A stretch of DNA of 64,000 nt from an uncultured Candidatus Saccharibacteria bacterium (GCA_964456855.1 CAYWCU010000001.1:8442-72441), one strand, 5' to 3'. Shown: positions 24,993 through 33,478, numbered from the stretch's first letter. Program-made: numbers and translations. Notes: a model not told the origin generated them from the sequence alone.

Positions 24993-25703
24993 ATGGATAT
25001 TCCTCAAGACATTCTTAATAAATTTATAGTAAGAGAAGATTATTTGGAGTGGGTAAATAAAGAAACGTCCATTATCGCGTACTTGGATTTGACTAATATG
25101 TTCCACTGGCAAGATGTTTTGGGGTGGAAATTTCGCATAGAAGATTTAGCCGAGCAACTTTTTAGTTTTTCAAACATTAAGGAAATTAAAGTGTATTATG
25201 GCTTGAACGAAAGAGATATAAGGAACTCCGAGGCCTTTCATGCTCGCATAAGAAAAACAGGGGCAATTTTAAGAAAAAAGCCCATGAAATTTATTAAAAA
25301 AAACATTAATGAAGCCATGTTTTTCCAACGCCGCACAATGACATTATTTGACGGAGAGCAGTACATTAAAGAAAAAATTAATGAACTGATACAAGCGCTT
25401 AATGAGTCTGGAATAATCATTGAAGAGCCTAAATGTAATTTTGATGTTGAAATGGCAATGGATATGATTGATGATACAGAAAAAATGACAGCAGTGATGC
25501 TTTTTTCCGGAGATTCAGATTTAAAAGAACCCTTAGAGAGATTAAAGATAAAAGGAAAGAATATTGGTGTGGTGGGGGTGCGCGGAAAAGTGGCGGGAGA
25601 ATTGCACGAAATTAAGAACAAATATATTGATTTTGGTAAGTTTTATACAGGGAAAAGGGTCTATACAAAAAGCGAAAATCCCGCTTTGGGCGGGACCGCG
25701 TGA
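24993..25703 (+). CDS. NYN/LabA-like (PIN-related) nuclease-domain protein
   Basis: AYLDLTNMF...CNFDVEMAMDMIDD...AVMLFSGDSDLKEPLERLKIKGKNIGVVG, typical of NYN/LabA. Confidence 0.65.
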   Translation: MDIPQDILNKFIVREDYLEWVNKETSIIAYLDLTNMFHWQDVLGWKFRIEDLAEQLFSFSNIKEIKVYYGLNERDIRNSEAFHARIRKTGAILRKKPMKFIKKNINEAMFFQRRTMTLFDGEQYIKEKINELIQALNESGIIIEEPKCNFDVEMAMDMIDDTEKMTAVMLFSGDSDLKEPLERLKIKGKNIGVVGVRGKVAGELHEIKNKYIDFGKFYTGKRVYTKSENPALGGTA

Positions 25704-25725
25704 TTAGTAGGATTGCTCCTACGCC

Positions 25726-25835
25726 ATCAATATAGCATACCAAGTTGCTAGTATCAAGAGAATTGTGGATAAGTGAAAACGAATGACCAGAAGCGAAAAA
25801 CTCGCACTCGTGAAAAAAAACAAAAAGGCCGTTGG
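25726..25835 (+). repeat. repeat copy R2
   Basis: tcaatatagcatac...gtggataagtgaaaacgaatgaccagaagcgaaaaactcgcactcgtgaaaaaa; an in-frame TGA lies just before the shared core. Confidence 0.7.
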
Positions 25836-25866
25836 AAATTAAAGGTTTTGAGTATAACATAAGAAA

Positions 25867-26268
25867 ATGAAAAAGGATTATTTAGAATGGCATAAGAAAA
25901 AAGAGAAAATTGACTGTAAAAATAAGCATATTTTTTTTCATGAACGAGAAGTTTGGTGGTGTTCTCTTGGTGTGAATGTCGGTTATGAGCAAGACGGAAG
26001 AGGAGACAATTTTTCCCGCCCCGTGGTTATATTGAAAAAATTTAATCTTGATATTTGTTTGGTTGTTCCGCTTACGACAAGCAAGAAAACGGGAAAGTAT
26101 TATTTTTCAATTGGAGATGTTGAGGGGAAAAACGCGTCGGCTGTATTGTCTCAGATAAGACTTATTGACCAGAAAAGGTTTTTTAAGAAAGTGGAGATGA
26201 TTGATGAAGAGATTTTTGATTGCTTAATTGACGCTGTTGTTAGTGTTAATTTTAAAAAAGGGGCTTAA
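25867..26268 (+). CDS. PemK/MazF-family toxin-like protein (no adjacent antitoxin ORF seen)
   Basis: REVWWCSLGVNVGYEQDG...RPVVILKK...CLVVPLTTS...SAVLSQIRLID matches the MazF/PemK fold pattern. Confidence 0.65.
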   Translation: MKKDYLEWHKKKEKIDCKNKHIFFHEREVWWCSLGVNVGYEQDGRGDNFSRPVVILKKFNLDICLVVPLTTSKKTGKYYFSIGDVEGKNASAVLSQIRLIDQKRFFKKVEMIDEEIFDCLIDAVVSVNFKKGA

Positions 26269-26276
26269 AACAGTTT

Positions 26277-26302
26277 GCCCCCGCTCCTTGCGGAGCGGGG
26301 GC
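26277..26302 (+). terminator. GC-rich hairpin (gcccccgctcc-ttgc-ggagcgggggc)
   Basis: Perfect 11-bp stem immediately after the toxin gene stop. Confidence 0.55.
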
Positions 26303-26500: not shown

Positions 26501-26622
26501 AAAATATGATATATTTAGGGAAATTATGGAAAAAGACGGGAAAACAAACCCGGCCTCGCGACAAGCGCAAAAATTAGCTAACGCTATCAGTGTATCAACC
26601 GATAAGCTTTTGAAATAGAAAT

Positions 26623-27786
26623 ATGGCAAACAAAAATCTTACAAATGCAAAACGGGCAAAGAACGATGAGTTTTATACCCAGTTCGGCGATATCCAAAAA
26701 GAGATTGAGGCGTATTTGGAATACGATCCCGATGTATTTCGGGGCAAGGTGGTGTATTGTAATTGTGATGATCCGTTTGAGAGCAACTTCTTTCGCTATT
26801 TCGTACTCAATTTCAACAAGCTTGGATTGAAACAGCTTATCACCACCAGCTATAAACCTTCACCTATAGCCAACACGCAACTGGGATTGTTTGGCGATGA
26901 CAAGACCCTTGCGAAATCAAAAGGCCGTCCTAAGGTAAATGCTAACAAATTTATTATCAACGAAGTGGGTGATATGGATGGCGACGGCGAGTTCAATTTG
27001 AAAGATGTTGCCATACAGTTAAGGGCAAATAAACACAACGAATGGGAGCCCCTAGAAAATAATGGCGATTTCCGTAGTGATGAATGTATAAATCTACTTA
27101 AACAATCCGATATCGTGGTAACCAATCCGCCGTTCAGCTTATTCCGAGAATATGTAAAACAACTTATGGAGTATAAGAAAAAATTTGTGATCATCGGAAA
27201 TATGAATGCGATCACTTATAAAGAAATATTTCCTTTAATTAAAGACAATAAAATATGGCTTGGGGCTGGTAAAAACGATGGACGAAATGTGTGGTATCAA
27301 GTTCCTAATAATTACGAAAATTTTCACAAAGAGGAAAATGGCAAGAAATACGCATTTGTTGCGGGAACAATCTGGTTTACCAATCTTGATCACGGACGAC
27401 GCCATCAACCGTTGCCACTAATGACTAAAGCAGAAGTGATTAAATTTGGTACAAAAAAACCGTTCGAAAAATATGACAACTATAATGCAATCGAGGTATC
27501 ATTCGTTAAATACATTCCAAGTGACTACAAAGGTGTGATGGGTGTGCCAATCAGTTTTCTTGGTAAATATTCCCCCGATCAATTTAAAATTGTTGGAATG
27601 TGTGAAAATGAAGATTTGTATAAATTAAAAACAAAAGTTTATACAACGGCGGAGTGTAAGCAGGCATATTTAGATAAATTTGGCAAAAACGGAACTTATG
27701 ATTTGAACGCAAGTGGGGTGGTTATTCGAAACGGTTTATTGGAAAAAGTTTACCAAAGGATACTTATTAAACATAAGAAAAAATAA
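26623..27786 (+). CDS. EcoRI-methylase-family N6-adenine DNA methyltransferase
   Basis: N-terminus [14 protein letters not shown]...VVYCNCDDP and catalytic VTNPPFSL (NPPF), the hallmark pattern of the M.EcoRI/M.RsrI family. Confidence 0.7.
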
Positions 27787-27787
27787 T

Positions 27788-28954
27788 ATGAAAACAAACT
27801 TAAAAACTACCATTACCGTTAAAGATATCTGCGAAGGGTTTGTCTATAATGAACTTGAAGGCAAGGGCCTGTTTGGCTTGTCTGGCACGCTTACTATTCA
27901 GCCGGAGTACCAACGAAACTATATCTATGCCTTAGACGGCGGTAAAAAAGAGGTCGCCGTCATTGAGTCATTGCTCAAAGGTTACCCGATAGGTTTGATT
28001 TATTTCAATAAAGTAAACGACAAGAATTTAGAGGTTTTGGACGGACAACAACGCATTACTAGCGTTGGGCGATTTGTTAATGGTAAGTTTGCAATCAAGG
28101 ATGAAAACGGAATGCAATATTTCAGTACTATGGCAGAAGACAAGAAGTCCAAGATTTTAAAAACAAAACTTCTCATTTACGAATGCGAAGGTACTGAAAG
28201 TCAGATTAAAGAATGGTTTAAGACAATCAACATTGCAGGTGTCCCACTTAAACCCCAAGAATTTCTCAACGCTATTTATTCCGGACCATTTGTAACACTC
28301 GCAAAGGAAGAGTTTAGCAATAGCCAAAACGCAAATACGCAAAAATGGAGCGCGTACATATCGGGTGTCGTTAATCGCCAAGATTTTCTGGAGCAAGCGC
28401 TTGATTGGGTAAGCAAGGGAAACATTGACGATTATATGAGCCGTCATCGCAAAGATACAAATATTAAAGAGCTAAAAAATTATTTCAACAGCGTAATTGA
28501 TTGGGTTTCTGGGGTGTTTATAGATGTTGAAAGTGAAATGCGTGGTCTTGAGTGGGGGCGAATGTATAAGGAATATCACAAAAACGCTTATGATCCAAAG
28601 AAAGTTTCAAGGGAAGTTCACAAACTTTACGCCGATTCATATATCAAAAACCGTAAAGGTGTTTTTGAGTATATTCTCGGCGGTTCAACTGATACGAAAT
28701 TACTAAATGTCAGAGTATTTGACGAGGCAACTAAAAAGTCGGTTTATGCAAAGCAGACAAAGAGCGCAAAAGCTGGTGGTAAATCAAATTGTTCGCATTG
28801 CGCAATGGGTCATGATGCTAACAAAGAAAAAATTTGGGATCTTTCTGAAATGGATGCAGACCATGTTAGTGCTTGGAGTAAAGGTGGCGCGACAGATATA
28901 AAAAATTGTGAGGTGTTGTGTAAGACGCATAATCGGGCGAAAGGAAATCGATAA
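27788..28954 (+). CDS. DUF262 (ParB/Srx-like, DGQQR) + C-terminal HNH nuclease protein, GmrSD-like architecture
   Basis: LDGQQRITS motif in the N-terminal domain. C-terminal CSHC...[12 protein letters not shown]...[15 protein letters not shown] is an HNH/His-Me finger. The ATG lies 1 nt after the methylase stop; the track ORF starts at an upstream GTG. Confidence 0.65.
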
Positions 28955-29009: not shown

Positions 29010-30080
29010 ATGAAACAAGCAAATCAAAAATTAAAAGCAATTGATTTTTTCTGCTCAGGCGGAGGAATGAGTTTTGGTTTGCAACAAGCTGGAATAGATG
29101 TCATTGCTGGAATTGATTTTGATTCTGATTGTAAAGATACATACGAGGCAAATATAAAAGGAGCAGAATATATTCTTGCTGATGTTGAAGAATTAAATGC
29201 CGAGGATTTATCAAAAAAAATAGACATAAAAAAGAATGATGATGATCTTATTTTGGTTGGATGTAGTCCGTGCCAGTATTGGACAATTATTCGGACAAAT
29301 AAGAGTAAGTCTCAAAAATCAAAAAATTTGCTTCATGAATTTCATAGATTTGTTAAGTATTACAATCCTGGATATGTTGTTGTAGAAAATGTCCCGGGGA
29401 TTTTAAATAAACATAAAGAAAGCGGGCTAAATAAATTTGTAAAGGACTTAGAAAAGCAAGGGTATGCAGTTCGCTATGAAGTGGTGAATTTAAATGAGTA
29501 TGGAGTGCCAGAAACAAGAAAAAGATTTTCATTGATAGCTAATAGAGTAACTAAAGATGAATTATTTCCTAAAGCAAATAATTCTTGTCCAGTGGTCTCT
29601 GATTTTTTGGGCGAAAAAAACAGTTTTTATAAAATACCCGCTGGGCACAAGGATCCTACGGATTTAATGCATACAACAGCCAAATTAAGTAAAAAAAATA
29701 TAAAAAGGTTAAAATTGACACCTAAAAACGGTGGCACACGACAGGCATGGGCGGATACTGATCTACAAATTAATGCATATAAAAAGAAAAATTCCAATAT
29801 ATCATTCAGGGACACATATGGACGAATGTCTTGGGATAAACCAGCACCAACTATTACTACAAAATTTTTTAGCATATCAAACGGTAGATTTGCACATCCA
29901 AATGAAAATAGAGCAATTTCCATAAGAGAAGGAGCGACATTACAAACTTTTCCTAAAACATATAAATTTATCGGAGGTAGTATTGCTACAATCGCACGAA
30001 TGATTGGAAATGCTGTTCCTCCGCTTTTTGCTAAACAAATTGGAAAAACTATAATCAAAAATCATTATGACAAAAAATAA
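29010..30080 (+). CDS. DNA (cytosine-5)-methyltransferase
   Basis: Motif I FFCSGGGMSFG, motif IV GCSPCQYWT, motif VI ENVPGIL, motif X GNAVPP. An alternative start is at 28965. Confidence 0.85.
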   Translation: MKQANQKLKAIDFFCSGGGMSFGLQQAGIDVIAGIDFDSDCKDTYEANIKGAEYILADVEELNAEDLSKKIDIKKNDDDLILVGCSPCQYWTIIRTNKSKSQKSKNLLHEFHRFVKYYNPGYVVVENVPGILNKHKESGLNKFVKDLEKQGYAVRYEVVNLNEYGVPETRKRFSLIANRVTKDELFPKANNSCPVVSDFLGEKNSFYKIPAGHKDPTDLMHTTAKLSKKNIKRLKLTPKNGGTRQAWADTDLQINAYKKKNSNISFRDTYGRMSWDKPAPTITTKFFSISNGRFAHPNENRAISIREGATLQTFPKTYKFIGGSIATIARMIGNAVPPLFAKQIGKTIIKNHYDKK

Positions 30081-31725
30081 TAAAACAAAACTTCAGATGA
30101 CTTTTGACCCATTGGTTATAGATGACCTTGGTGCAAAACTTTATTCTACTTTACCGCCGATAATTTCTGAATTAATTGCAAATGGTTATGATGCTTGTGC
30201 AAAAAAAGTATTTATAGAGCTAACAGGGGCGGGTGAAGATAAAAAAATTATTATTACAGATGATGGTTTCGGTATGAGTTTCGATGAGATTGATGATAAA
30301 TATTTACGAATAGGTCGTAAAAGACGAGAAGTTGCCGATGAAAAAATTGAATGTGAAAGACTCCCAATTGGAAAAAAGGGGTTAGGTAAATTAGCTTTTT
30401 TTGGTATTGCAAAAAAAGCAGTTATAAAAACTGTAAACAATGGAGAAGAGATTATATTTGAAATGAATTGGGACAAAATTCAAGATACCCCAGAAGGGGA
30501 TGATTATGAGCCAGTTTTTAGCAGAAAAAAAACTACTGAAAATAATGGTACAGAGATTATTTTATCTGAGATAGACAGAAAATCTGATTTTAAAACAGAG
30601 AGTCTTAAAATTAGTATTTCAAACTATTTTATCTTTGATGAAGATTTTAAGGTTTTTATCAAAGATGATTCAATGGGAAACTTTGAGGAGATTGATAATG
30701 AAATTAGATACAAACAAGGTGACAGGGGGAAAGATTTTTCATGGTCGTTTCCAGAAGTTGTCAAAAAACTTGAATTGGAAAAAGAATTTCCGTTTGCCCT
30801 AGATATTAAGGGTAAAATTATTTTATTTAATTTACCAGTTAAAAATAAGCTAAGAGGTGTTACTTTATTTTCTAGAAAAAAATTAGTAAGTCTCCCAGAA
30901 TCATTTCCAGTTCAGGGATCGAGTCATTTCTATCAATATTTAACTGGTTGGCTAGAAATAGATTTTATAGATAATCTAAAGCCAGATGTTATTGCCACAA
31001 ATAGAAGTAGTCTTAATTGGAATGATGAAAATCTTGAACAATTACAATTATTTTTGGAAAAAATAATAAATTATATACACAGAGAATGGAGAGTTCTCAT
31101 AGAAAACAGAAAAGAGAAAAGAGTGAAAGAGAAATATGGCGTAGATATTCCAGTATGGAGAGAAACCAACAAAAATAATCCTACAATTGTTAAAAATATT
31201 GATAAACTTGCTAAAGTATTTAATGAACCAGAAAAAATTGGCGAAAGTGAGGCGATAGATGTTTTAGGAATTGTATATGGTCTTGCTCCAGAAAATGCCG
31301 ATTTTGTACTCTGGTCTGGATTACACCAAAAAATAACGGAAAATACTCTTATAAAAGAATCTTTTTTTGCTGGGAAATATTTAGCAGCATCACGTGAAGC
31401 GGTACAAATTTATAATGAAACTGTGCAAAGTGTGTCTGGTTACGATGAAGCCGATTATGCTTTAATGGAAAAATCATACGGAAAAGAAGGACATAAGAAA
31501 ATTTGGGTTACAAACAAGTCTAATGATAATGAGAAAAATATAGATGAAGGGCAAAAACTAATTTCACAAGGAATAATGGTTGGTTTTAAGAATCCTGGTG
31601 TTAGCCACACAAGTCTCACGAAAGGACTGCAAAATAATGACTTTTCTCCACGAAATTGTTTGGATATATTAAGTACAATATCTTATTTATTTGACAGACT
31701 AGAGAAACGAAAACAACCAAGATAG
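30067..31725 (+). CDS. GHKL-superfamily (MORC/MutL-like HATPase_c_3) ATPase, R-M-associated
   Basis: N-box ELIANGYDA and G1 box IIITDDGFGMS. Overlaps the Dcm stop by 14 nt. No nuclease motif recognised. Confidence 0.6.
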   Translation: MTKNNKTKLQMTFDPLVIDDLGAKLYSTLPPIISELIANGYDACAKKVFIELTGAGEDKKIIITDDGFGMSFDEIDDKYLRIGRKRREVADEKIECERLPIGKKGLGKLAFFGIAKKAVIKTVNNGEEIIFEMNWDKIQDTPEGDDYEPVFSRKKTTENNGTEIILSEIDRKSDFKTESLKISISNYFIFDEDFKVFIKDDSMGNFEEIDNEIRYKQGDRGKDFSWSFPEVVKKLELEKEFPFALDIKGKIILFNLPVKNKLRGVTLFSRKKLVSLPESFPVQGSSHFYQYLTGWLEIDFIDNLKPDVIATNRSSLNWNDENLEQLQLFLEKIINYIHREWRVLIENRKEKRVKEKYGVDIPVWRETNKNNPTIVKNIDKLAKVFNEPEKIGESEAIDVLGIVYGLAPENADFVLWSGLHQKITENTLIKESFFAGKYLAASREAVQIYNETVQSVSGYDEADYALMEKSYGKEGHKKIWVTNKSNDNEKNIDEGQKLISQGIMVGFKNPGVSHTSLTKGLQNNDFSPRNCLDILSTISYLFDRLEKRKQPR

Positions 31726-31726
31726 C

Positions 31727-32134
31727 ATGAATGATAAGCTAGTTTCAAAAATCATAGAAAGAGATCGTATTTTTGGAAAGTTGTGTTTTGAGGCACAGGA
31801 TTCTTATAAACAAGAAAATTATTTTTCTGCATTGGCTTGTTTATTTGTTTTAGCAGAGCAAATTATAAAATTTTCTGTTGATAGAGTTGATGGTAATTTT
31901 CATAAAGCAATTATAGAAGCAAGAGAAAAGAATTTAATTAATGACATAGAATTTCAATTTCTTAATTCTTTGAGAGAAGTAAGAAATAAAATATTTCATG
32001 AGAGTCATTATCCGACAGGTCTTGAAATTGAAGGCAAGTTTTGGTCATTTAGTGAGAACGAAACAAAAGAGTTAATTTATAGAGAATTTTCTCCAAAAGT
32101 ATTTAGATTAGTATTTAAGTTAGTTGCATTTTAA
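31727..32134 (+). CDS. hypothetical small helical protein translationally coupled to the GHKL ATPase
   Basis: The ATG lies 1 nt after the upstream TAG stop. Confidence 0.4.
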   Translation: MNDKLVSKIIERDRIFGKLCFEAQDSYKQENYFSALACLFVLAEQIIKFSVDRVDGNFHKAIIEAREKNLINDIEFQFLNSLREVRNKIFHESHYPTGLEIEGKFWSFSENETKELIYREFSPKVFRLVFKLVAF

Positions 32135-32194: not shown

Positions 32195-33478
32195 ATGAAC
32201 AAAATTATATGTCCGAATTGTAAAAAAGATTTTGAGATGGATGATGCCGGCTTTGCTGATATTTTAAAGCAAGTTAGAGATGAGGAATTTAACAAAGATC
32301 TAAAAGAACGGGAGCTGATATTCATTAAGGATAAAGAAAACGCTGTTAAGCTTGCCGAGGCTAATATCACAAAAACACTACAAGAAAATCTTGCGAAAAA
32401 AGACAAAGAATTGGCTGAACTGAAAGCTGAAAAAGAACTTGAACTTGTTGAGCTTTTGGCTAAGAAAGAATCTGAAATAGCTGATATGAAATCAAAAATG
32501 GATAGTGTAGAGATTGAGAAAAAACTCGCTGTAACTGAGGCGGTTAATTCTGTTGAAAAAGAGCGAGATGAACTGGCTGGTGAATTAAAAAGCAAAGATA
32601 CAGAGAAACAATTGCTTGAAACATCGTTAAAAGAAAAGTTTTCTGACGAACTTAAAATTAAAGACAATATCATTAAGATGAAAGACGAGGAAATTGCTCT
32701 TCGTAAAGATATGAAAATTAAACTCTCAACTAAAATGGTCGGGGAAACCTTAGAGCAGCATTGCGAAACCGAATTTAATAAACTTCGCGCCACTGGTTTC
32801 CAAGACGCGTATTTTGAAAAAGACAACGACGCAAAAACCGGTAGCAAGGGTGATTATATTTATCGCGAAACTGATAAGGTTGGAAATGAAATTATTTCTA
32901 TAATGTTTGAAATGAAAAATGAAGGCGATGAGACCGCTACCAAGAAAAAAAATGAAGACTTTTTACGCGAACTTGATAAAGACCGTAAAGAAAAGAAATG
33001 CGAGTATGCTGTCCTTGTTACGCTATTGGAAGCCGAAAATGAACTATACAATACTGGTATCGTTGATGTTTCTCATAAACATTCCAAAATGTATATAGTT
33101 CGCCCGCAATTTTTCATCCCCATAATAACTCTGTTGCGTAACGCATCAATGAACTCCCTTAAATATAAAGCCGAGCTTGCCTTGGTAAGAAATCAAAATA
33201 TTGATATTACAAACTTTGAAGATAATGTAAATAAATTTAAAGAAGGATTCGCAAAAAATTACGATTTGGCTAGTCGTAAATTCAAAAACGCCATTGAAGA
33301 AATAGACAAAACTATAAACCATCTCCAAAAAACTAAAGATGCGCTATTGTCGTCTGAAAATAACCTCCGGCTCGCTAAGAATAAAGCAGAAGATCTGACA
33401 ATTAAAAAACTAACGCGCGGGAATACTACAATGACAGCTAAATTTGAAGAAATTTCCAATCCCAATAAAACAACATAG
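32195..33478 (+). CDS. DUF2130-like protein (N-terminal zinc ribbon + long coiled coil)
   Basis: [32 protein letters not shown]... matches the characteristic DUF2130 start. Confidence 0.5.

Follow-up and report, generated by a model that had tools for sequence, protein, structure and literature searches.

What does a DUF262-HNH nuclease do when its gene lies directly behind that of an adenine methylase? We met this arrangement in a stretch of 64,000 nucleotides from an uncultured Candidatus Saccharibacteria bacterium, which we refer to as the window. An initial annotation of the locus had described it as type IV-like and had offered two readings. Either the methylase shields the host's own DNA against this nuclease, or the nuclease targets foreign modified DNA while the methylase belongs with a different effector. 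Based on the comparisons described below, we consider it probable that the two genes constitute one restriction-modification (R-M) module, with the methylase protecting self and the DUF262-HNH protein restricting unmarked DNA. The EcoRI-family methylase would place N6-methyladenine on host DNA at its recognition sites, and the DUF262-HNH protein, made from the same transcript, would cut DNA without that mark. We infer the direction of protection, the NTP dependence and the dependence of the nuclease on the methylase.

The locus encodes an EcoRI-family methylase and a DUF262 protein with a zinc HNH

The features of the two genes are as follows.

26623..27786, + strand: EcoRI-family gamma-class N6-adenine DNA methyltransferase (387 aa), the probable modification subunit, assigned by Pfam, PADLOC and linkage to the nuclease
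27124..27135, + strand: catalytic motif IV of the methylase, NPPF (aa 168-171), read from the sequence
27784..27790, + strand: methylase-nuclease junction TAA-t-ATG, read from the sequence, with the same spacing in relatives
27788..28954, + strand: nuclease (388 aa) composed of DUF262 (ParB/Srx-fold NTPase-like), a helical middle domain and a zinc HNH, the probable restriction subunit
27893..28279, + strand: DUF262/GmrSD_N domain (aa 36-164), from Pfam, invariant residues and Foldseek matches to ParB
28040-28054, + strand: DGQQR (aa 85-89), a presumed nucleotide-binding motif; QR lies at aa 42-43
28790..28951, + strand: HNH nuclease domain (aa 335-388) with C335xxC338, D358-H359, N373, C374xxxC378 and H381-N382

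Profile searches placed the first protein firmly in the EcoRI family. Pfam PF13651 (EcoRI_methylase) covered the whole 387-aa protein (E=5.4e-126) and the PADLOC MTase_II model PDLC03297 matched it as well (E=1.9e-104); a PDB sequence search with the methylase found no relative. Motif IV, TNPPF, is encoded at nt 27121-27135 (+), and the longer string TNPPFSLF was unchanged across 21 aligned, diverse members of the methylase family. Adjoining the nuclease there is hence a co-oriented DNA methyltransferase with an intact catalytic motif, the arrangement of a Type II system.

For the second protein, the initial annotation had called DUF262 and a C-terminal HNH and had quoted the motifs LDGQQRITS and CSHC...DADH...CKTHN. 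All of these motifs were found in the translation, and both domain calls held in profile searches, with Pfam PF03235 (GmrSD_N/DUF262) matching aa 36-164 (E=4.7e-21) and PF01844 (HNH) matching aa 353-388 (E=2.7e-6). The layout had moreover been likened to that of GmrSD and SspE. This was right for the DUF262 part with its DGQQR but not for the C-terminus, which is a classical CxxC...CxxxC zinc HNH of the McrA/Cas9-like kind. The only C-terminal Pfam matches were PF01844 and PF14279 (HNH_5), and DUF1524, sought there by Pfam, was absent. DUF1524 is the C-terminal domain that defines GmrSD, SspE and BrxU, enzymes that exceed the window protein in length by some 200 residues. NCBIfam had no model for either the methylase or the nuclease.

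We compared 91 members of the nuclease family that were 31-90% identical to the window protein. Q42, R43, D85, G86, R89, E158, W239, R309, F311, C335 and H359 were invariant, and C338, D358, N373 and C378 were kept in at least 90% of the members. We take Q42, R43, D85, G86 and R89 to be the nucleotide-binding motifs of the ParB/Srx fold. A check of NTPase against nuclease residues, as had been proposed with the initial annotation, accordingly found both sets conserved, and the alignment indicates that the family has kept the nuclease site as well as the presumed NTP site.

An AlphaFold model of the nuclease computed from a diverse alignment (pLDDT 93.5, pTM 0.80) had BrxU and SspE as its best structural matches; EcoKMcrA and TagI matched too, and Foldseek also found ParB CTPase domains. 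The middle of the protein is a conserved, helical domain of some 170 aa in which E158, W239, R309 and F311 are invariant, and no SRA, YTH or DpnI-like winged-helix fold was among the structural matches for this region (~aa 165-330). The middle domain could act as an autonomous DNA reader. PDB searches with the nuclease sequence and with a profile of its close relatives returned chance TIM and L11 matches only. Within PADLOC, the nuclease matched the REase_II model PDLC03418 over its full length (E=2.6e-83), with protein aa 8-387 aligned to profile positions 7-371 of 372. The GmrSD-type models (HEC-05/06, Orf5) matched weakly over short stretches inside DUF262, and Menshen NsnA and PD-T4-2 matched the DUF262 part only and far more weakly than REase_II. 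The REase_II and MTase_II models derive from REBASE Type II enzymes.

The nuclease ATG does sit 1 nt behind the stop of the methylase, as first described: TAA occupies 27784-27786, a single t follows at 27787 and the ATG begins at 27788. Identical TAAnATG spacing was present in 21 of 71 related genome loci, and three viral loci had a gap of -1, which is consistent with an overlap of stop and start codons. Since the sequence has no purine run of the Shine-Dalgarno type 5' of the nuclease ATG, translational coupling from methylase to nuclease at this junction is plausible. A longer, GTG-started frame from 27713 is also open for the nuclease; the ATG at 27788 is the start conserved in relatives.

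The nuclease is near-obligately paired with the methylase

We examined 80 genome loci carrying close relatives of the nuclease. Most were from Patescibacteria MAGs, and some carried the labels Elusimicrobiota, Actinomycetota, Chloroflexota or Armatimonadota. Eight loci were left out of the linkage count because their upstream DNA was too short, and in 71 of the other 72 the methylase was found upstream on the same strand. We also examined 80 viral contigs, on which identity to the nuclease fell from 81% to 37%. In about 68 of 70 viral loci the methylase again lay in front of the nuclease in the same orientation, and this held as far down as 37% nuclease identity; one viral locus (L165) had the reversed gene order. 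Overall, the methylase was upstream in ~98% of ~140 informative related loci, plasmids and phages included, and the pairing is consequently retained in relatives. Plasmids of Enterococcus faecium and of actinobacteria also carried the pair, as did small plasmids of Pediococcus, Moraxella and Leuconostoc and the Flavobacterium phage laban6-1. These plasmid and phage records are annotated 'adenine-specific methyltransferase EcoRI family protein' and then 'DUF262 domain-containing protein'. The window DNA that flanks the two genes had matches in 0 of 166 loci, and the conserved unit therefore consists of the methylase and the nuclease. Their pairing is not a matter of chance; co-occurrence is near-obligate.

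The dependence is asymmetric, in that the methylase is commonly an orphan and the nuclease very rarely. Among the informative viral loci, 60 of 75 methylases had the nuclease beside them and 15 were orphans, and the orphans that we examined had as neighbours either small genes of phages or genes for replication (ribonucleotide reductase, DNA polymerase A). A nearby methylase was missing for three nucleases of ~140. In one of them (L032) the nuclease is inserted together with RhuM within a menaquinone operon, and in another (L128) Bro-N, nuclease and integrase stand together; in the third (L108) a methylase is encoded elsewhere on the nuclease's own 44-kb contig. A modification gene that is often alone and a nuclease that is almost never alone are the usual signature of an R-M pair.

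We also came across a natural in-frame fusion of methylase and nuclease (P0186), 688 aa long, in an organism that reads TGA as Trp. We considered a gene-calling artefact and rejected it, as the frame is truly continuous with TGA read as Trp. Motif IV of the methylase part is degenerate (TFPSF), which makes the meaning of this single fusion ambiguous.

In relatives, variable defence genes are often placed between the methylase and the nuclease on the same strand, among them RhuM, Fic, T5orf172, AAA_13, OLD-like, AIPR and AbiU2 genes. At the window locus the two genes are directly adjacent with no insert. The family comprises more than 8000 close proteins. Clustering at 50% identity gave 436 clusters with E below 1e-30, and of the 150 entries listed, those of full length mostly had 360-420 aa. 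Patescibacteria carry the family very often, and plasmids and phages of many phyla have it as well. The module in the window is a member of this family, which is very large, highly conserved and spread by horizontal transfer, and which is filed as Type II in databases.

Downstream of the nuclease, two further genes bear on the question of which effector the methylase serves.

29010..30080, + strand: C5-cytosine methyltransferase (Dcm) of a separate system (Pfam PF00145, E=8e-59; TIGR00675)
30067..31725, + strand: GHKL-ATPase restriction-like protein with a BbrUII/HgiDII-like N-terminus and a Hypoth_Ymh C-terminus

The GHKL gene overlaps the Dcm gene by 14 nt, and its product matched NCBIfam NF050001 (E=1.4e-58, below cut-off), Pfam HATPase_c_3 and Hypoth_Ymh, and PADLOC REase_II. 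Dcm follows the identical nuclease in other samples and does not do so in relatives; the Dcm-GHKL pair is found with the nuclease in no lineage but that of the window. Further neighbours in the window are DUF2130, PemK and NYN. PADLOC gave no matches to ssp or dnd phosphorothioation genes, an Rfam scan of 20-36 kb had no matches, and a promoter scan returned sites no more numerous than in shuffles.

Of the two initial readings, the one in which the methylase protects self from this nuclease is hence supported by linkage, junction, fusion, asymmetry and the PADLOC Type II match. The other, in which the methylase serves a different effector, is rejected, as the next two genes, Dcm and the BbrUII/HgiDII-like GHKL gene, form a pair of their own. 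The description of the locus as type IV-like, and of either reading as unusual, was overstated: the family is already among the Type II enzymes (BanLI, see below) and the C-terminus is not DUF1524. It was overstated also because the DUF262 nucleases SspE and DndI are likewise partnered with self-modification modules (PMC12707154, PMC11662687).

Variable methylases are combined with a nearly uniform nuclease

Aligning the family revealed two hypervariable segments in the methylase.

27262..27372, + strand: VR1 (aa ~214-250), between WLG and WFTNLDHG, a presumed DNA-recognition loop
27598..27747, + strand: VR2 (aa ~326-375), between QFxIxG and YxRIxIK, a presumed target-recognition module

Column conservation was 0.43-0.55 in VR1 as compared with 0.8-0.95 in its flanks, and 0.43-0.60 in VR2, which also contains indels. 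At least 13 discrete VR1 types, obtained by single-linkage clustering with some types merged, and at least 38 VR2 types were distinguished, and 125 pairs contained 70 VR1 x VR2 combinations. One VR2 type can accompany many VR1 types, and it can recur in cassettes whose nucleases are only 39% identical. For 480 locus pairs with nucleases at least 85% identical, the VR2 type differed in 91% and the VR1 type in 72%. VR1 and VR2 look like discrete, recognition-like modules rather than drifting loops, and their place C-terminal to motif IV together with their discrete, reassorting types suggests that they presumably set specificity.

The nuclease behaves differently from the variable methylase. In 61 genome pairs, pairwise identity of the nuclease averaged 83% with a minimum of 76% (range 76-96%), and that of the methylase averaged 68% with a minimum of 46%. 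The dN/dS of the nuclease was ~0.05 with synonymous sites saturated (pS ~0.72), values that point to strong purifying constraint as the source of its similarity. Recent transfer as the cause of the high nuclease identity was rejected because of this saturation. Covariation with VR type above the permutation null was seen for columns of the methylase core but for none of the nuclease. The nuclease and the methylase core are co-inherited (Mantel r=0.68).

Palindrome avoidance gave no target for the methylase of the window. Depleted palindromes in the window are TCGA, ACGT, GATC, GGCC and, to a weak degree, ATTAAT, none of them attributable to this methylase, and there is no depletion of AATT or GAATTC.

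BanLI appears to be a partly characterised member of the family

In BanLI of Bifidobacterium animalis subsp. lactis, the gene for a 41.7-kDa adenine methylase, which its authors aligned with M.EcoRI, precedes a 43.5-kDa R gene (PMC3990576). The REBASE Type II enzyme with the RTCAGG site is a gene annotated 'DUF262 domain-containing protein', and BanLI has been called 'a canonical Type II R-M system' (PMC13091528, 2026). It is like the window pair in gene order, methylase and then nuclease, and in sizes (here 387 and 388 aa). Its annotation, sizes and gene order as published suggest that BanLI belongs to the family and has been characterised in part. SMRT data gave RTC(m6A)GG with m6A on one strand only, which its authors explained by the loss of a second methylase; cloned BanLI lowered P1vir plating about ten-fold (EOP ~0.1) and methylation by M.BanLI raised transformation 1.8-fold (PMC3990576). 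Restriction by BanLI is weak. BanLI lies beside an integrase in DNA of atypical GC and is therefore mobile (PMC3990576, PMC13091528).

Unlike BanLI, the window methylase has its own VR1 and VR2 types, so that its target is probably not RTCAGG, and its host genome is Patescibacteria-like. In a search for homologs of P0244, aimed at a named REBASE relative, all names were of the 'DUF262/HNH' kind and none came from Bifidobacterium, and no names were obtained for the GC-rich cluster representatives of ~43.5 kDa. The BanLI literature that we consulted contained no mechanism (cut position, cofactors), and the literature on DUF262, on ParB/HNH Type II enzymes and on PF13651 did not name the family. 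We therefore classify the locus as an R-M pair of the BanLI type, which databases file under Type II, and not as a GmrSD-family type IV enzyme.

How the nuclease might be directed to its target

A classical Type II restriction enzyme must independently read the sequence of its methylase, and the pattern of variable methylases and a uniform nuclease is hard to reconcile with this. If VR1 and VR2 set specificity and the nuclease is near-invariant, its target would therefore have to come from the methylase, or the mark itself would have to be sensed. As a tentative reading, to which we give somewhat less than an even chance, DNA specificity would lie in the methylase, which would recruit or license the nuclease at unmethylated sites by a Type III-like logic. 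VR1 and VR2 would reassort as target-recognition domains and the near-invariant nuclease would read no sequence itself; the ParB-like DUF262 would serve as a nucleotide-dependent switch and the HNH as the cutter. A nuclease guided by its methylase fits because BanLI methylates one strand of an asymmetric site, because a second methylase is absent family-wide and the NTP-binding motifs are invariant, and because hosts evidently tolerate the few nucleases that have no methylase nearby. The variable methylase beside a uniform nuclease, the defence genes inserted between the two and the contrast of common orphan methylases with very rare orphan nucleases together hint at such a logic. With slightly more reserve still, we suggest that the family might not be classical Type II but represent a distinct and very widespread kind of R-M system, in which the methylase gives all specificity, marks one strand of asymmetric sites as BanLI does, and guides or licenses a near-invariant ParB/Srx NTPase-HNH protein. 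Its mechanism would be Type III-like and switched by nucleotide, assembled from unrelated parts, and its genes would also frame defence inserts.

A rival account is a classical Type II system, in which the nuclease uses its helical middle domain to recognise the methylase's sequence unaided. The VR segments would then be surface loops without a role in specificity, and one target site or a few would be common to all family members. PADLOC and REBASE place the family in Type II, the published view of BanLI as canonical agrees with them (PMC13091528), and the large conserved middle domain with its invariant residues would provide a reader. We nonetheless think this account unlikely. A nuclease that is 76-96% identical across deeply diverged lineages with saturated dS is unlike restriction enzymes that recognise their sites independently, and discrete, reassorting VR types resemble recognition modules, not drifting loops. 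The three nucleases without a nearby methylase should, moreover, be lethal to their hosts unless a methylase is encoded elsewhere, and BanLI methylates just one strand of its asymmetric site (PMC3990576).

We weighed two further accounts. The nuclease could be a low-specificity enzyme of the SspE or DndI kind, whose DUF262 NTPase senses m6A as 'self' and turns the HNH off or, alternatively, releases the protein from DNA, so that unmarked DNA is nicked or degraded and no complex of methylase and nuclease is needed. Sensing of a mark rather than a sequence has been proposed for both SspE and DndI (PMC12707154, PMC11662687). We regard this as rather improbable, because the model shows no domain for reading m6A in many sequence contexts and the C-terminal domain is unlike that of SspE and DndI. 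Much less credible to us is a modification-dependent nuclease of the GmrSD, BrxU or McrA kind acting against foreign modified DNA, with the methylase as an unrelated neighbour or mobile passenger. DUF262 and McrA-like HNH domains are both known in modification-dependent enzymes, the best structural matches were BrxU and SspE with EcoKMcrA and TagI matching as well, some relatives are annotated 'McrA' by JGI, and a constant nuclease beside a variable methylase would be compatible with it too. Such an enzyme needs no methylase, however, yet ~98% of loci have one, and the coupled junction, the reversed order and the fusion also speak against a passenger. Pfam gave no DUF1524 match, the model shows no modification reader of the SRA, YTH or winged-helix type, the PADLOC GmrSD-type models match weakly over short DUF262 stretches, and the BanLI data indicate protection by methylation (PMC3990576).

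Significance and comparison with known systems

Taken as filed, the locus itself is an unremarkable R-M module, and its annotation should say so and not name a type IV enzyme. Its interest lies more in the family-level pattern, a restriction subunit made of a ParB-like nucleotide-binding domain and an HNH nuclease that is under unusually strong constraint. No published mechanism for the family of DUF262-HNH nucleases with EcoRI-like methylases was found in the literature consulted. If the VR segments do dictate the target, with the nuclease guided by the methylase, the pair would be a compact, reprogrammable restriction system and a new use of the ParB/Srx switch. The one-strand methylation by BanLI would then be explained without a lost second methylase.

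The window nuclease shares DUF262 with DGQQR with GmrSD and BrxU. These are proteins of ~560-600 aa composed of DUF262 and DUF1524, whereas the window nuclease has ~390 aa and a zinc HNH (PF01844). Type IV enzymes of the GmrSD/BrxU kind have no cognate methyltransferase; the window nuclease, in contrast, is obligatorily paired with a methylase, and modification dependence is not indicated for it. SspE and DndI are partnered with a PT-synthesis operon, while the partner here is a single m6A methylase, and the window nuclease has another nuclease domain and is a much smaller protein.

With Type III Mod/Res systems the likeness is one of pattern only. It comprises seemingly exchangeable methylase segments next to an NTPase-nuclease subunit that is highly conserved, a single methylase for an asymmetric site methylated on one strand (in BanLI), and a nuclease that is rarely without its methylase beside a methylase that can be an orphan. 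In Type III systems, Res takes its target from Mod. The proteins themselves differ: Res is an SF2 helicase-like ATPase with PD-(D/E)xK, and the window nuclease has neither, only DUF262 and HNH. Mod is a beta-class enzyme, whereas the window methylase is gamma-class and EcoRI-like, and the genes here are half the size.

Type I hsd loci likewise hold accessory defence genes between the modification and restriction genes, as do the relatives of the window pair, and the kinds of cargo (RhuM, Fic and others) are those known from hsd loci. The presence of COG1479 inside a Type I locus has been mentioned (PMC3632139). As distinct from Type I, the frame here is the two-gene pair of an EcoRI-like methylase and a DUF262-HNH nuclease.

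Surroundings of the methylase-nuclease pair

We looked at the genes on either side of the EcoRI-family methylase and the DUF262-HNH nuclease. Upstream of the methylase, the window carries:

24993-25703, NYN-domain protein
25867-26268, PemK/MazF-like toxin
26277-26302, perfect 11-bp GC-rich hairpin following the toxin gene
26526-26618, 30-codon ORF (MEKDGKTNPASRQAQKLANAISVSTDKLLK) terminating 4 nt upstream of the methylase ATG

Among the called ORFs of 24993-26302 there was no obvious antitoxin for the PemK/MazF-like toxin. The 30-codon ORF lies within a GC-richer intergenic region of 320 nt before the methylase, for which neither a DNA match in any related locus nor an Rfam match was found.

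Downstream, a second R-M-like pair follows immediately, and a DUF2130 protein is encoded beyond it:

29010-32134, Dcm C5-methylase and 552-aa GHKL ATPase (genes overlapping by 14 nt), then an ORF of 135 aa that weakly matches DUF4145
32195-33478, DUF2130 protein of 427 aa

The N-terminal part of the GHKL ATPase is BbrUII/HgiDII-like, scoring 199 bits where the cut-off is 550 bits, and its C-terminus is Hypoth_Ymh, a domain combination unlike that of the BbrUII/HgiDII equivalog.

Across the whole 64 kb, four palindromic 4-mers are strongly depleted, with observed/expected ratios of 0.15 for TCGA, 0.26 for ACGT, 0.38 for GATC and 0.40 for GGCC; among 6-mers the ratio is 0.37 for ATTAAT. This depletion suggests that several other R-M specificities acted on the DNA of the window over long exposure. 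None of these five palindromes could be assigned to the EcoRI-family methylase.

Three other sequencing runs each yielded a contig (L232, L233 and L234) that encodes a nuclease identical to that of the window, accompanied by the same downstream genes. On each contig the sequence stops 700-920 nt before the nuclease, within the methylase gene. These ends possibly reflect an assembly break, arising either because genomes that occur together share the conserved 5' half of the methylase gene or because the variable segments differ between strains.

Variation of the pair among related loci

At L086:4001-6067 a natural fusion joins EcoRI-like methylase and DUF262-HNH nuclease in one reading frame, giving a protein of 688 aa. 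The organism translates TGA as Trp, and TGA codons within this frame occupy conserved W positions. Because the methylase part of the fusion has lost the hypervariable segment VR1 and carries TFPSF in place of the catalytic NPPF, this part may only bind DNA. In a Saganbacteria MAG (L032:3405-5623), RhuM and the nuclease lie within a menaquinone-biosynthesis gene cluster; the 4.4 kb upstream and the 3.6 kb downstream contain no methylase.

DUF2130 recurs beside or within the cassette in several relatives (L011:2582-4024, L066:7195-8448, L012, L025 and L040), where it either follows the nuclease directly or separates the nuclease from the methylase. Insertions of same-strand genes between the two cassette genes occur in 33 of the 71 genome loci that have the methylase upstream of the nuclease on the same strand, as well as in about a dozen viral loci (L100, L124, L131-L139). 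The inserts measure 0.6-4.2 kb (examples are L039:3852-5999, L044:4388-5999, L053:2268-5923 and L023:4307-5989) and their content differs between loci. RhuM was found in 13 loci, T5orf172 in six, and Fic and DUF2130 in three each; the inserted genes further include AAA_13, OLD/AAA_15-like proteins, AIPR, HEPN_AbiU2, Bro-N, a trypsin-like protease, and a Dam-like methylase together with a ParB-like protein. The inserted genes look defence-related, and the methylase and nuclease genes seem to form a frame that holds other defence genes, similar to the role of hsd genes in Type I loci.
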